A model generated the notes under the pieces. That model saw nothing but the letters and a program-made list of their open reading frames with translations, ran no database searches and was not told the DNA's origin. Below, in pieces: positions 1,431-41,712 of a DNA stretch of 64,000 bases. Position 1 is the stretch's first letter; the number at the start of each line of letters is the position of its first letter. Both the position numbers and the translations under genes were made by a program. The stretch is from the NCBI RefSeq assembly GCF_963506605.1, contig NC_083288.1, positions 28,892,001 to 28,956,000 on the forward strand. Direction: 5' to 3'. The DNA is from Zootoca vivipara (taxonomy: Eukaryota).

Positions 1431-1939
1431 AATACCACCAACAATGGTGCAGTAAATAAAGAGTTCACTTGTAATTGTTCAAGATATAATCTATTTTGGA
1501 AAGAAAAGAAATGAACAGTGAACCACTGATATATTACGAGTACAAGTGAACTCTGTATTTAAAGAAACTACTTTTGTCATTTTTATGAAGGTTTCTGGTT
1601 TGTTTACAGATTACTGCCTATCTAGCATGTTTTATTTATGTATGGAAATGCTTTTACCTTATGCTGGTCTAGGACCATAATAAAGATTTGGAATTTGGAA
1701 TGTACAGTTCTTGTATGTTACTTTAAGTGATGTATGCATTCATATGAACACTTTCCCCTAGTATAAAACAACTGGAGAAATGTGAATTTCAAATGGTGGC
1801 TATATTTTAATTTGTGTATTGTTTTGGAAAGTGCAAATTTTGCAAATTTGCCTTAAAATGTGATGTGAAAACTTCTCCAGTCAGGCATTTAAAAGCTCAA
1901 GTGCATATTCCTAATCTGATAAATAGAAAAGAAAACTTC

Positions 1940-2045
1940 TATTCAGATGTGATAAACATGTTTTCTTTTGCAATTCCACGGGGAATTCCCACATTTGACT
2001 TCATATCACACACCCCTTTATGTATAAAAGCTATAATTAATTTCT
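1940..2045 (+). promoter_or_regulatory. Conserved upstream module of V2R gene A
   Basis: CAGATGTGATAAACA (1944), TTCCACGGGGAA (1974), TAATTA (~2033); same motif order upstream of B, C, D and E. Function is inferred. Confidence 0.6.
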
Positions 2046-2333
2046 AAAATCCACTGCACAATTACAGTTTCCCCTTAGAGAGCTAATAACACAAACTGAG
2101 AATGGCACAAAAATGCCCTCTAGCAATCACAGGTGTGATGAAGGACTAGGAACAAGCATGCATACACCACTCTTATAACTTTACTTATACTTTATATCTT
2201 GGAGTAATTCAAGCATATCATCATACTGACTGAGCATCCAAGTCAAGTCACCGTAACCACAGAGAATATCATGATAATGATGCAGGTGGAAATACAGAAG
2301 AATCTGGACGTAGAGTGAAAGGCGGTGATCAAT

Positions 2334-3102
2334 ATGGTAGTATTAGTTGTCTTTCTGCTAATACTGCTTTCTCATATTGCCTCTGAGGATCACTATGCTA
2401 AATGCAGGGTCCATGCTCCATACCCTCCACTCCAAAAATATCATCTGTCAGGCAACATCATAATTGGTGGGATTGTTTCTCATAGTTTCACCAGTGTTAA
2501 TTCAGTAGCCTTCACAACAGAACCTCCAGCACCTTCATTTGAAGATCTTTTGTAAGGAGCTAATTCTTTCTTTCTGTTGTTTTGTGGTTTTGTTTTGTTT
2601 TGTTAATTGGTCTTAGTCTTAGAAGCTGCAGTCTCATAAAAATGTTTTTTTGGACTGTAGAAAAAGCTAATACGTTTAAGGGAAAGCTCCACCTGGAAGA
2701 AGATGCACTGGTAAAATAGTTCCCCCACCATTGTAACAGTATTGGTCCAAATATCCCTCTTCAAATATGACTACTACTGTTACTATTATTGTTAAAATTT
2801 GATCATGTGAGATTCTATCATTTGTTACATCTCTTTTGAACTTAAGGTAAAAAAAAAAAGAGCAGGAAGAAATTTTAGCTCTTCTTTCCTTTACAAACTC
2901 CACCTCACTCATTTCTACCCCATGGTTCCTTTCTTTCATCATATACATGCTGTCTCCACTTGCACTTTTGCTGTGCTTTTCATTTCTTCTGATATTTCAG
3001 TTACTTGGCTTCAAACACAGCACTGTTTATTTGTTTCATTTTATTTACATTACCACAACTATCTTAATGTATCCTGAATGTAAAATAGACTCATTTCATA
3101 TT

Positions 3103-15204: not shown

Positions 15205-15690
15205 ACTGCACATCAGATCAGAGTTGTTAGGCAAAAAAAGGAGCAAAGTAAAACTTCTGTCCAGATGTGACAAACATGATTTTCTGAAATTAACTGCAAT
15301 TACACAACCTTGACTTTGTAATTATTATCCTTTGTAATTTTATTGAAAAATAAAAAGTGCAAAATTACTAGTGCACAGAGTGAGACACAAACAAAAGAAA
15401 CAAGAAATAGTACCCATGTAGAAAACAAATCGGAAGAAAGATATTGTGTATATTACAGGGGGGGGGGGACTTGTTATTGTAGTTAGCCAGATGTTAATCT
15501 AATATGGCATTTATTTTTTAAAAAAATATTCAGCATATCAGATGCTAGACGGAAAAGGGAAAAAAAGTAAAACCTCTGTCCAGGTATGACAAACAAGATT
15601 TTCTGAAATCTTCTACAGTTCCACAGAGGAAACCCCTACTTTGTAATTATTTTCCTTTGTTATTATAAAGTAGACTCTAATTAACTCTGA
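15205..15690 (+). promoter_or_regulatory. Duplicated conserved upstream module of gene B (two copies ~320 bp apart)
   Basis: CTGTCCAGATGTGACAAACATGATTTTCTGAAAT (15257) and CTGTCCAGGTATGACAAACAAGATTTTCTGAAAT...TTCCACAGAGGAA (15576-15631). Confidence 0.55.
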
Positions 15691-15907
15691 CACGTGTAAA
15701 ACTACCTGCAATTATTAGTGCTGGAGACTGCAAAGGATGTTATATATGTGTCATATTAAAAAATATGGCTCAGGACTAACAATATTTATTCTTCCTGTTT
15801 AAGGTCTAAAAGTTTCAGCCTTTGAAACTTGCAGGCAATATATTGATAGATTAGTCTGTGGGAACACAATAAGGTAGGTCTAGTGAAGGTTTGCCCTTAT
15901 ACTCAGG

Positions 15908-18900
15908 ATGGTGATATTTGTGATGTCGCTGCTGGCATTGCTTTCTCACATGTCATGCAAGTCTCACATTGTGAAGTGTCATGTCCATGATCCACACCCT
16001 CCGCTTCACGAGTATCACCAGACAGGGGAGCTCATTCTTGGTGGCATAGCTTCTCACAGCTTCATTGTCTCCAAACAATTATCCTTCACTGAAGAACCTC
16101 CACCAGCATTGGTTGAAGAACTTCTGTAAGGGGTTCTCCTATCTTTTTTTTTTTTAATCTTAGCCTTAGATTTTCATCTTCATAGCCAAAATTTAGACTT
16201 GGTATGATACTCATCAAGCTATTTTAAAATCTATTTAAAAAGTACCTCTGTGGTCATAATTCAGAAAACATTCTGAATTATAAGTAGTTGGGAAACACCA
16301 GTACTCAAAATATGAATCTTACTAAGATGTAGTAGTTGTTGTTGTTGGCATCTGTCTTGAGGGACAATGCAGAGACAACAAGACCCCACTCTCAGTCTCG
16401 CTGATTTGGTCCAAAGGAAAGCACAGTGATACATTTGTCATCAACTTGGCTGCAGGAATTGCCATAAGGAGGCATGCAAGAAGTCTTCCATCCATTTTAG
16501 GGACTCCTCTCCAAATTCATCTAGGGTGCAGATTTTCCCTTGCGGTTTACTCCCAATGCCTTTCTCATGAATTTGTGTAGCCAAAAGGCAGCAGATGTTT
16601 AGGATCACTTTTATTTCTCCTATATGGGCTGCCTTCCAATATTTACAACATCCATCTGCCCCTCATTTCCCTCTACAGTATGTGCAATAACCACCTTCTT
16701 AACTGTTGGGCCCACTCTGTGTCTTCTCTCCTCAATCCACCAGAGACTTTCTTCACATGATGGAGAAGTCCCAAACTTACTGAGGGTTTGAGACCCATTG
16801 ACTACCCTCACCTAGTTTAGCTGGCCAGTGAAGCTGTTCGATAGGGTGGCATGGAGACAGCTTCTAGGAACCACAGATGAGAACTGGATGTGTCCCCTAC
16901 CAGAGGTCCTACCCCCTCCCCTAATACTACATATATCCCACCTTACTGAGAAGTACCTATTATTATGTATAGAGATGATTATTGATATATACTTTCCTTA
17001 TGATATTTACTTTGCTTAGGACAATTTAGGCTTAGAACTATTTAGGCTTACCTAAAAATGTGGCAAAAATGATGGAGTAGTGATCGTTTTTCAAAGCATG
17101 AGTACGTTTCTGATGTTTAATGTCACACTTGTTCAGTGTAGTAACTAAGATTTACCAGCACAGTGATACATTTGTCATCAACTTGGCTGCAGGAATTGCC
17201 ATAAGGAGGCATGCAAGAAGTCTTCCATCCATTTTAGGGACTCCTCTCCAAATTCATCTAGGGTGCAGATTTTCCCTTGCGGTTTACTCCCAATGCCTTT
17301 CTCATGAATTTGTGTAGCCAAAAGGCAGCAGATGTTTAGGATCACTTTTATTTCTCCTATATGGGCTGCCTTCCAATATTTACAACATCCATCTGCCCCT
17401 CATTTCCCTCTACAGTATGTGCAATAACCACCTTCTTAACTGTTGGGCCCACTCTGTGTCTTCTCTCCTCAATCCACCAGAGACTTTCTTCACATGATGG
17501 AGAAGTCCCAAACTTACTGAGGGTTTGAGACCCATTGACTACCCTCACCTAGTTTAGCTGGCCAGTGAAGCTGTTCGATAGGGTGGCATGGAGACAGCTT
17601 CTAGGAACCACAGATGAGAACTGGATGTGTCCCCTACCAGAGGTCCTACCCCCTCCCCTAATACTCCATATATCCCACCTTACTGAGAAGTACCTATTAT
17701 TATGTATAGAGATGATTATTGATATATACTTTCCTTATGATATTTACTTTGCTTAGGACAATTTAGGCTTAGAACTATTTAGGCTTACCTAAAAATGTGG
17801 CAAAAATGATGGAGTAGTGATCGTTTTTCAAAGCATGAGTACGTTTCTGATGTTTAATGTCACACTTGTTCAGTGTAGTAACTAAGATTTACCAGCAAAT
17901 CCTGACCTTGGCATCTGCAATGAAAGAGATCAATGAAAACCCTCAGATTCTCAGGTTTAAATTATGGTTATGGTTATGGTTATGATATAGGGTCTTTTCT
18001 TTTCTTTTCTTTTCTCTTTTCTTTTCTTTTCTTTTCTTGGCCAAGCCTTTTTGCTGAATTTTCCTTTGGCCAAAAATGAATATCAGATCTAAATGCATTA
18101 TTCCCTTTGGGAAACACATCAAGCATTTATGCTGAATTTTTTTTTTACCAATACAGGGATGGTGATTTGAACTTAATATGCACAATTTCAGATTTTCACC
18201 AATAAAATGAGCAAGGATGGTGGTTTCAACATTGTGTGGTGGTTGTTAATAATTTTATTTACCACTTGTCCTTTGGGGTAAGGTCCCAAGGTTTGTAACA
18301 ACATTAAAAACAATTTTAGAAAATCAATATGCAAAATTTGGGCTCAGATGTTCTAATACTACCTACTTCTGTTACATGTCACATTTCAAATATTTACCCA
18401 ATTACCTGCAGCAAAATCTAGGTGCCACTCCCAGCTGAGTGAATATGGGATTGCAACTTTCTTGGAGGCGAGAGTTGGACTTCGTATAATATTGAGGAAA
18501 GCTATGTTGAAATACATTAACAAGTTGCATTTGATTATAACCTGATGAATGTTCCAGGTCATGACTAATTTGAATTTGCTTTATGAATTGCATTGGTTAA
18601 TTGTAATGTTATGTATTACATTGGTTAATCATTTCATTTTAAGTAGGCCACCCTAAACTACTACCACAAATGTGGTATAAAATAATGGAAAAGATTTTAG
18701 ACAATGTAGGATATGATGTAGATTGCAATTCTCATTCTAGCGTGGTGACTAAGAATTACCAGCATGTCCTGGCCTTGGCATTTGCAGTAAAGGAAATCAA
18801 TGGAAATTCTCAAATTTTACCCAATACCACTTTGGGCTTCCACATCTTTGACAGCTATTTCATTGCAAAGGGTACATATCATGCCACACTGCTCCTTACG

Positions 18901-38656: not shown

Positions 38657-39318
38657 TTGTCTTTGTGCATTGCTACCGGTATTCATTGGCCAGCTTCAGA
38701 GGGTAGCATATCTTCTCTGACAAGCTTTTTTGGCACCATCTTATCAGTGGCTGTTTCCAGTGTCCTAGCGAAAACCATCACAGTGGTTCTAGCTTTCATG
38801 GCCACCAAGCCAGGATCCCAGATGAGGAAGTGGGTGGGGAGAAAGCTGGACGCTTTCATTGTTCTTCTCTGTTCCCTTATCCAAGCAGTTATTTGTTCTA
38901 TATGGTGAGCAACCACTCCTCCATTCTCTGATATTGACAAGGATTTCATGCCTGAAGAAACTGTACTGGAATGCAATGAGGGGTCTGTGGCTATGTTCTC
39001 CTGTGTCTTGGGCTATTTGGGCTTTCAGGCTATTATCAGTTTCATCGTTACTTTCCTTGCTCGGAAGTTGCCAGTCAGTTTCAATGGAGCCAAGTTTATA
39101 ACATTCAGTTTGCTAGTGGTTTGTAGTGTTTGGTTGTCCTTTGTTCCAATCTACAGTATGTGAGCTCCAAGGGAAAATACATGGTGGCTGTAGAGATATT
39201 TGCCATCTTAGCTTCTAGTGTTGGGTTGCTGGGTTGCATATTTTCTCCAAAGTGTTAGATAATTCTGTTGAAGCCTGAGCTGAACTGCAGGGAGCAGCTG
39301 ATGAGAAGAAAGCCTTGA
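38657..39318 (+). pseudogene. V2R pseudogene: orphan, 5'-truncated exon 6 (7TM)
   Basis: [38 protein letters not shown]; in-frame stops (38718, 38906, 39256) and frameshifts; no exons 1-5 seen upstream. Confidence 0.9.
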
Positions 39319-40400: not shown

Positions 40401-41409
40401 CAACAATCAAAGCAAGAGAGGGCTACGCTCTCTTAAAAGTATGTCAAAATTGCTACTATGCCTCTTGAGAATTTTTCTGCTTTGTGCTATTAAAAATAGA
40501 TATATGTGATGGGCAGCAAAATAATGGGAGGGTTTGCTAGAAACCTTGAAAGGTAGAGGGGGTGAAAAAAAATATTTGGTCCACTTCTGACAGTTGGCTG
40601 ACATGCTGAATCTTTCTGGTGAATCTAAATTCAACTCCCAGTTCAATTTTCTATTAATTAATTAATTAATTAATTAGAATTATTCTTAATTTTCTATACC
40701 ACCCTTCATCTGAGGATCACAGGACAGTTTTCAGTATACTGTAATTATATACAGTACTGTAATTATACAGCTTCTGTACAAAAAAAATGGCCTTCTCAAG
40801 TTGCAGACCTCGCCTCCACCCTCTATGCACAGCAGCTAAGGCTCACATTGCCTTGCCAGCCCTTAGGGGAATTCCCCAGCTGGCAGAATCTAGGATCAGG
40901 GATTCCCCACCCAAATACTGTCTTCAAATGGGCCAGTAGGAGGCCCTGCTGAATGGGCAGTGCCTTGCCAGCTGGCTGGGCATTAGCTGTTGGCCATGTC
41001 TGGTCAGTCAGCAATGCATAAAAGCTGGCCACGCCTACCTTCTGCAGTGCAGATATTTGACATAAAAGATGCAGACAAAATGTGCATTTTATAGATGAAT
41101 GTATTGAAAAATATTTTATAATTATTAAATGGTTCAGATTTTACATAAAACTGTGTACTAAATACCTTCAATTTAAGTTGGGTGTTTTTGTTTTGTTTTT
41201 TATGAAGCCGCTAAAAATATGTAAATACACACAATGAGATGGACTGGAGCAATGACAGAGTAAGAGTGATTATTATTCAATTTCTAACCCATGCTTCACC
41301 AGCAACAAGTATGTTCCTGTTCTCTGTCGCATACCACAGTACAGTAATTTGTGATGACATTCCCTTTCTGTGGATCATTCTAAACAGAAATATTCCTTTC
41401 TTGGGTGGG

Positions 41410-41520
41410 AGAAAATGTTCACATGTGAAAAACAAGTTTTCTTCTGCAATTCCATCGGGAACCTCTGAACCTGGATCTGGTGATTGTCTTTAATTATCAA
41501 AAGAGCTGTAATTATTTTGT
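41410..41520 (+). promoter_or_regulatory. Conserved upstream module of gene D
   Basis: CACATGTGAAAAACA (41420), TTCCATCGGGAA (41450), TAATTA (~41491 and ~41508). Confidence 0.55.
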
Positions 41521-41712
41521 AAAAAATAAAACAAAACTGAGGTGTTTTAGTGACCACTAGCTAAATGAATAGCAAATCCAGTGAAATATAAATATGTCTA
41601 ATACCATTTAGAAATAAGAAAAGGGACAAAGAAGACTTATACTCCAGTCTTTAAGCCTATCAGCACACTGGATGAATGCTCAAATCAAATTGTGACCATA
41701 GAGACTCTTATA

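Follow-up and report, generated by a model that had tools for sequence, protein, structure and literature searches.

V2Rs dominate the squamate vomeronasal organ. The regulation of V1R and V2R genes is described as little understood in the cited excerpt of a 2026 preprint (10.64898/2025.12.03.690614), and a literature search lying outside most subscription journals and supplements retrieved, in the texts it reached, no motif-level account of V2R promoters. Single-cell data suggest, in the section cited, that V2R choice follows combinations of transcription factors and that V1R choice does not (PMC11630819). Homeodomain factors mentioned for these tissues include Emx2 (PMC11630819) and Dlx5 (PMC8254721) in vomeronasal neurons and Lhx2 in snake chemosensory tissue (PMC12400810). 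Mouse V2R genes start close to their first coding exon, as does Vmn2r26, whose start is 105 bp from the annotated one, and a V2R promoter with exon 1 sufficed to place Fpr-rs1 in basal vomeronasal neurons (excerpts of PMC7873101, PMC8254721 and PMC3927265); V2R regulatory sequences are mentioned as characteristic in the cited part of the review PMC7873101. ATF5 together with C/EBP-gamma has been suggested to enhance vomeronasal receptor transcription (PMC8254721). This suggestion matches the C/EBP-ATF-like sites of the lizard sequences described below. The primary study on these two factors reportedly used a Vmn2r promoter reporter.

Here we describe a block of ~200 bp that lies upstream of coding exon 1 in most of ~200 V2R genes of the lizard Zootoca vivipara; the motifs singled out in a preliminary description of one locus form its 5′ third. 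Mouse OR promoters depend on homeodomain (HD) and O/E sites, which lie no more than ~300 bp from the start, and their expression increases when HD sites are multimerised (PMC12547500). In the excerpts cited (PMC3247239, PMC12547500), they resemble the lizard block in being AT-rich, gene-proximal and ~200-300 bp long, in carrying HD-type sites and a TATA box, in their O/E site (present here in at least one clade) and in standing upstream of a large, singularly expressed receptor family. The O/E site leads the OR motifs, whereas in the lizard it is canonical in one of four clades and the leading motif is a TAAT triplet of fixed spacing; in the same excerpts OR motifs are described as enriched without one fixed layout, whereas the lizard block can be aligned across clades as one ancestral unit. 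Mouse V1R promoters (excerpts of PMC1955453 and PMC3247230) are conserved within subfamilies and have motifs common across subfamilies, some of them O/E-like, but are presented there as having no evident cross-subfamily homology by ordinary alignment and as lying kilobases upstream behind 5′ introns. The lizard block, by contrast, can be aligned between clades and is no more than ~1 kb from the ATG. Greek islands, with their composite Lhx2/Ebf motif (PMC12547500, in part), share with it clustered HD and O/E-type sites, but the lizard block occurs as one oriented copy per exon 1 together with a TATA box, and its O/E and HD sites are at least 20 bp apart. Identity with Greek islands was considered and rejected: side-by-side HD and O/E composites were not found, the O/E-like sites lying at least 20 bp from the nearest TAAT core. 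By analogy, the block likely works like an OR or V1R promoter, but one in which the O/E site is not a family-wide feature.

A V2R array with a recurrent upstream module

The window, a stretch of 64,000 nucleotides (C13:28892001-28956000) within a 1.44-Gb genome, the single genome analysed, contains class C GPCR genes in tandem, with ANF_receptor and 7tm_3 domain matches for the exons of genes A and D. Genes A-D have six exons each, with open frames and splice signals, in agreement with the V2R plan of six coding exons encoding ligand-binding and 7tm_3 domains; from this plan and the size of the cluster we take them to be V2Rs. Five intact genes had been counted originally; A-D are intact, but exon 6 of gene E lies past the window end and is split by an insertion of ~5.8 kb. 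The insertion (~C13:28958114-28963955, L224) has TG...CA ends and a 5-bp target duplication and is LTR-element-like. The window also holds a LINE reverse-transcriptase ORF (280-1413), a Copia-type reverse-transcriptase ORF (54021-56486), a broken 7TM exon fragment between genes C and D (38729-39160) and a stray exon-2 fragment inside intron 1 of gene B (17872-17950).

The pattern CASRTRTGANAAAC matches exactly at 1944, 15262, 15581, 29698, 41420 and 59567, the six positions for which it had been reported, and nowhere else in the window (6 matches against 0.05 expected; 0 of 100 shuffles). The features of the module copies are as follows.

1934..2045, + strand: gene A module, with 5′ element, palindrome and third homeodomain-type site; first two sites eroded
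1944..1963, + strand: gene A 5′ element CAGATG-TGA-N-AAACA, Forkhead-like (RYAAAYA); its E-box lacks family-wide constraint
1966..1985, + strand: gene A TT-NN-GCAAT-TCC core, running into an O/E-like palindrome
2034..2039, + strand: gene A third homeodomain-type site, TAATTA
2106..2115, + strand: gene A position aligned (pairwise) with the family TATA box, degenerate, as in gene C
2334..2551, + strand: gene A coding exon 1 (signal peptide) of a V2R; exons 2-6 extend to ~14023
15242..15345, + strand: B1, an extra partial module copy with 5′ element and first TAAT site, palindrome absent
15561..15760, + strand: B2, gene B module; 5′ element 15581 (without E-box), palindrome 15619-15631, TAAT-type sites 15644, 15660 and 15678, TATA-like 15741; ATG 15908
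29678..29862, + strand: gene C module; 5′ element 29698, palindrome 29729-29740, third TAAT site 29789, degenerate TATA position 29853; ATG 30070
41400..41593, + strand: gene D module, the most complete of the window; 5′ element 41420, GCAAT core 41442, palindrome 41450-41461, TAAT-type sites 41481, 41491 and 41509, TATA box 41587; ATG 41877
56952..57028, + strand: remnant module of the dead exon 1; third TAAT site 56959, TATA 57022
57204..57297, + strand: truncated V2R exon 1, dead copy
59547..59716, + strand: gene E module; 5′ element 59567, palindrome 59597-59608, first TAAT site deleted, remaining sites 59615 and 59633, inverted palindrome-like site 59658-59667, TATA-like 59703-59716; ATG 59892

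The 5′ element lies at -390 (A), -327 (B2; B1 at -646), -372 (C), -457 (D) and -325 (E) relative to the ATG. The same ordered series had been proposed for every gene, but for B neither copy is complete: the copy at 15581 reads CAGGTA and thus has no E-box, and that at 15262 has no palindrome. A TATA-like run directly 5′ of the third core is present at 2023 in gene A and at 29785 in gene C.

The module outlasts its flanks

Formal alignment of the window genes matches the 55 bp surrounding the motif in every one of the 10 pairs (z = 4.9-13.7 against shuffles), whereas in nine of these pairs, the close pair A/C being the exception, neither the two 90-bp upstream blocks (z = -1.4 to 1.9) nor the 90 bp that open intron 1 (z = -2.2 to 2.0) align. 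The remark that surrounding DNA is not alignable holds for these blocks, but not for the leaders just 5′ of the ATG in B/E versus D, which align weakly (z = 3.4-4.5). When sliding windows were compared with 126-145 divergent paralogues, the top non-coding peak coincided with the module in four genes (A, C, D, E) and, in gene B, with the extra copy B1. Conservation no higher than in the flanks, which would have refuted the earlier proposal, is therefore not what these comparisons show. A contig labelled as another organism shows 21 differences over 1889-2131, 3 of the 16 listed falling within 1934-1990; this is a single sequence with a C-like end.

The dead exon 1 at 57204 had been described as lacking the module. 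Alignment with the near-identical L014 and L011, truncated sister copies with the whole module, shows a deletion of 376 or 365 bp with 5-bp microhomology at ~56951/56952, which took away two cores along with the 5′ element and the palindrome but left the third homeodomain-type core and the TATA box. The 5′ part has therefore indeed been lost, but the 3′ part is still there. We rejected the pseudogene contrast as functional evidence: the module is kept in E, L007, L044, L011 and L014, all of them broken or truncated, so the dead exon says nothing about function. Three times (window 57204, L014 and L011), a truncated B-type gene stub is followed 2.7-5.7 kb further on by an E-type gene. In L014 and L011 the stub still has its promoter and exon 1 intact, and splicing onto exon 2 of the next gene is possible in principle.

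Distribution across the V2R family

The sample comprised 217 V2R promoters from contigs C13, C17, C14 and C7, the family being larger than the sample. A search with exon 1 of gene E yielded 464 candidates, of which 150 were scored and all 150 taken; in a search with a distant exon 1 150 of 503 were scored, and 67 further loci were taken (27 returned with the search, 40 hand-picked). Four exon-1 groups were sorted by motif, W (the window's own, 100 promoters), P (24), C (22) and H (71), and a quick exon-1 tree (117 of 217 rows, 72 columns) gave support only for W (98) and W+P (95), the remainder being clusters.

In an upstream motif search across these V2Rs, a profile built from the six window copies matched 90 of 145 held-out promoters at ≥10 bits, always in sense orientation; the four controls gave 0-1 (reversed 1, shuffled 0 and intron 0 of 145; far upstream 0 of 119). 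On the distant clade this window-only profile found 1 of 67, while a longer iterated profile, with a few promoters of that clade among its input, matched 48 of the 67 newly fetched promoters (one of the misses being due to a wrongly assigned strand) and none of the controls. An all-clade profile matched 211 of 217 and left six without a match, a figure that is partly circular since 85 of the promoters were seeds. In leave-clade-out transfer, W profiles reached 39/71 promoters of H and 15/23 of P, P profiles 58/101 of W and 36/71 of H, H profiles 29/101 of W and 9/23 of P, and C profiles 11/71 of H, whereas size-matched upstream and intron-1 blocks gave 0-1 matches between clades. Clade C was reached weakly by the profiles of other clades (0-3/22), and the block downstream of the module transferred slightly (up to 10/101). 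One gene, L138, carried the label W by mistake in the all-clade and transfer profiles, in several motif counts and in part of the alignments. Throughout the 184 kb mapped around the window, the module precedes every full-length exon 1.

In clade C the module lies 650-760 bp from the ATG (e.g. L097, L106 and L110), about twice as far as in other clades, and a 5′ intron or long leader is possible there. The TATA box is at its best in clade C promoters, which also contain a TGATGCAA-like site. At C13:42.25-42.32 Mb, L034 and L020 form a head-to-head V2R pair ~1.5 kb apart, and L022 and L036 are exon-1 copies 1 kb apart, the second of which has no module. Three close L020-type promoters are without the whole 5′ part of the module, its 5′ half having been deleted in this subfamily.

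Genome-wide, two exact patterns gave 9 and 7 matches, every one inside V2R cluster intervals, with none for the backward controls; 14 of the 16 lie upstream of listed exon 1s and two are tied to no gene. A looser pattern had 15 matches, 7 in this cluster and 8 scattered, and its control had 7. Two orphan modules, at C13:28968750 (L225) and 29005150 (L228), have no exon 1 behind them. The module had no Rfam match above chance, and RNA folding z-scores were -0.6 to -1.4 in four of the five window copies and -2.65 in B. In three raw RNA runs with the same species label, of which ~6% each was covered and whose tissue is unspecified, 0 reads fell on module or exon 1, which is no evidence either way.

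A TAAT triplet and a TATA box form the common core

The k-mer analysis covered 88 promoter clusters. De novo enrichment placed TAATTA and AATTATC on top (41.3 versus 5.2 and 6.7), and motif EM together with clade alignments resolved three TAAT-type cores, with peaks at -14/-13, +2 and +20 relative to the middle core and spacings of about 16 and 18 bp. Anchored core counts are biased by the anchoring itself; unanchored, a spaced TAAT pair occurs in 24-49% of the clusters of each clade versus 0-7% in intron and shuffle controls, and a strict, unanchored pattern of HD2-HD3 spacing shows no enrichment (W 4/100, P 4/24, C 0/22, H 6/71). TATAWAW is found 70-125 bp 3′ of the middle core in 26/99 promoters of W, 12/20 of C and 16/70 of H (weighted 0.43, 0.62 and 0.27 versus 0.03-0.05), at median distances of 91, 89 and 93.5 bp, respectively. 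Clade P has it in 0/22 and carries instead a TATTAA variant in 9/22. The median distance from TATA box to ATG is 172 bp in W, 275 bp in H and 615 bp in C.

Conservation was gauged against fourfold-degenerate sites of exon 1, a rough neutral yardstick, with bootstrap intervals. For elements chosen after the consensus was known, 16 of them tested in W alone, identity exceeds the synonymous level, with a bootstrap interval above zero, in W (0.58) for HD2 (0.75), HD3 (0.81), TCC (0.87) and TT..GCAAT (0.75), in H (0.54) for HD1-3 (0.73-0.79), TATA (0.71) and AAAGCT, in C (0.55) for HD2 (0.81), TATA (0.86) and AAAATTAC, and in P (0.66) for HD2 alone (0.95). Between clades the middle core is 0.55-0.77 identical versus 0.38-0.45 at synonymous sites, an anchor-biased comparison. 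Mean identity of the whole block equals the synonymous level (0.50-0.57 versus 0.54-0.66 per clade), so much of the block may be plain inheritance; it stands out by its constrained cores and by having escaped the rearrangements that erased its flanks.

Homeodomain-type sites are a supported component of the module, the TAAT cores being enriched and conserved as in OR promoters. The preliminary description had listed TAATTA-like sites last and given them too little weight, since the triplet is the part common to all clades, and it had missed the TATA box. WGATAR fits the first two cores at 0.45-0.63 versus 0.05-0.11, and on sequence a GATA and a homeodomain reading of these two cores are not separable. 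Genes A and C are intact yet have neither two of the cores nor a good TATA box, and L020-type promoters have no 5′ part; hence no single element is essential. The start of genes A and C, whose first two TAAT cores are missing (window 1990-2115 and 29745-29862), may have shifted.

Side sites differ between clades

The consensus of the bHLH E-box is CANNTG. The CAGATG of the 5′ element had been read as a proneural E-box, but CANNTG occurs there in 20/100 W promoters (weighted 0.30 versus 0.14 in the control) and unanchored CAGATG at 0.48 versus 0.33-0.42, neither amounting to enrichment, and its four defining bases are 0.51 identical versus 0.58 at synonymous sites, which indicates no constraint.

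For the EBF reading of the palindrome we used the O/E consensus TCCCYNGRGA given in the cited excerpt of PMC3247239. Genes A and D match TCCCNNGGGA with one mismatch; in gene A the TT-NN-GCAAT-TCC of 1966..1985 is above neutral in clade W and the right half of the palindrome is at neutral level. Across W, an upstream O/E site with at most one mismatch is present in 31/100 promoters (0.31 versus 0.01 in the control), whereas a perfect site is found in 0/100 W, 0/22 C and 0/71 H promoters. The fourth base of the W palindrome is A in 70% and C in 7% of clusters, and only the left half is constrained (TCC 0.87; right half 0.53, as at neutral sites). The one-mismatch matches in A and D thus stand, but an EBF site is doubtful in W as a whole. 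Upstream palindromes are virtually absent from the other clades (P 0/21, C 0/20, H 1/70). A canonical O/E site exists only in sister clade P, 3′ of the TAAT triplet, where it is perfect in 6/24 promoters and 0.69 identical versus 0.66 at synonymous sites; at the corresponding place W has a weak, inverted palindrome-like site (mean score 2.8 versus -1.5).

Sites were also read against the C/EBP-ATF and Forkhead (RYAAAYA) consensus sequences. The left part of the W element, TT-NN-GCAAT-TCC, is equally compatible with a C/EBP site and with half an EBF site. TTNNGCAAT occurs in 33/100 W promoters (0.38 versus 0.01), with TT..GCAAT 0.75 and NN 0.46 identical (post hoc). In clade C, TGATGCAA with at most one mismatch is found in 12/20 promoters (0.52 versus 0.01) at about the place of the W GCAAT, with an identity of 0.62 versus 0.55, a post hoc value whose interval spans zero; C/EBP-ATF-like cores are rare in P and H. 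These sites are notable because ATF5 and C/EBP-gamma are suggested to enhance vomeronasal receptor transcription (PMC8254721, cited section). The Forkhead pattern is present in 55/100 W and 7/21 P promoters (0.53 and 0.40 versus 0.07), and its AAACA is 0.73 identical versus 0.58 at synonymous sites in W, the interval just spanning zero. A p53-family half-site reading of AAACATGTTT (21/100 W, 6/21 P) was set aside, many promoters keeping AAACA and breaking CWWG.

Nature and origin of the block

The block has a defined order, orientation and spacing, is restricted to V2Rs and is conserved across clades. Its sequence makes it quite probable that the module is the upstream part of a V2R proximal promoter of a single ancestral origin, kept by selection on cores and spacing. 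From 5′ to 3′, the proposed layout would comprise a clade-variable part (AAACA and GCAAT-TCC in W, a TGATGCAA-like site in clade C), three homeodomain-type cores, an O/E site that is canonical in P only, and a TATA box ~90 bp past the middle core. Because the TATA box stands at a fixed distance downstream, the block likely adjoins the start site, which is predicted ~30 bp 3′ of the TATA box. In three clades this would place it ~140-250 bp 5′ of the ATG, and in the remaining one ~580 bp away. On the model of OR promoters, vomeronasal homeodomain factors of Lhx2, Emx2 or Dlx type, indistinguishable by sequence, would bind the triplet and license the TATA promoter, while the clade-variable C/EBP-ATF-like, Forkhead-like and EBF-like sites would tune clade choice or expression strength. 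The squamate V2R promoter grammar envisaged earlier thus survives as a conserved, oriented, V2R-restricted module with homeodomain-type sites; the E-box drops out of it and EBF is doubtful in W.

That grammar in its exact form, in which a proneural E-box, EBF and homeodomain sites define the V2R promoter, is improbable. It could draw on the one-mismatch O/E sites in 31/100 W promoters (0.31 versus 0.01), on the preserved left half of the palindrome (TCC 0.87) and on the weaker inverted copy downstream in W, at the place of P's canonical O/E (perfect in 6/24), but its E-box shows neither enrichment nor constraint, the right half of the palindrome is neutral, and outside P no perfect O/E is found (100 W, 22 C, 71 H) and virtually no upstream palindrome in P, C or H. 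Distinctly improbable, too, is a block acting as a gene-proximal enhancer or representing a conserved non-coding exon or RNA element, with the true start elsewhere: OR enhancers are also marked by clustered HD and O/E sites (PMC12547500, in part), several ATGs are preceded by pyrimidines and AG resembling a splice acceptor, and the clade C block lies 650-760 bp from the ATG, yet the orientation is always sense, the TATA box keeps its distance, Rfam gives no match above chance and folding is weak except in B (z = -2.65).

If upstream DNA had simply been duplicated along with the genes, its motifs persisting without selection, one would expect what is indeed seen within each clade, namely block identity equal to synonymous identity, an E-box, palindrome right half and several spacers at neutral level, and a module kept in recent pseudogenes. 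We nevertheless regard such inheritance as highly unlikely to be the whole explanation: the module transfers between clades where equal-sized upstream and intron-1 blocks give 0-1 matches, TAAT cores and TATA box are more conserved than synonymous sites, independently in several clades, the middle core is so between clades too (0.55-0.77 versus 0.38-0.45, anchor-biased), and the TATA distance is fixed. Membership in a dispersed repeat, or spread by recent gene conversion, has next to no probability. The two orphan modules in the 184 kb around the window and the second partial copy at B would suit it, but exact patterns are confined to V2R clusters, the 8 scattered matches of the looser pattern are like the 7 of its control, and module variants track exon-1 clades.

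We therefore retain the promoter reading as likely, OR-like in parts and predicted from sequence. A broader and rather unlikely extension would be an ancestral tetrapod V2R choice promoter, with a fixed-spacing homeodomain multimer and TATA box that mammalian Vmn2r genes would have as well, in which the clade side sites (EBF in one clade, C/EBP-ATF in others) would serve as the cis code underlying the reported connection of V2R identity with transcription factor combinations.

Implications

An element of ~200 bp that combines a defined layout and a constant core with side sites specific to each clade, and that stands before 200 or more receptors, offers concrete targets for mutation. The module profile can be used to annotate the 5′ ends of V2R genes in squamates. 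The module also provides a testable handle on how each neuron comes to choose one receptor.
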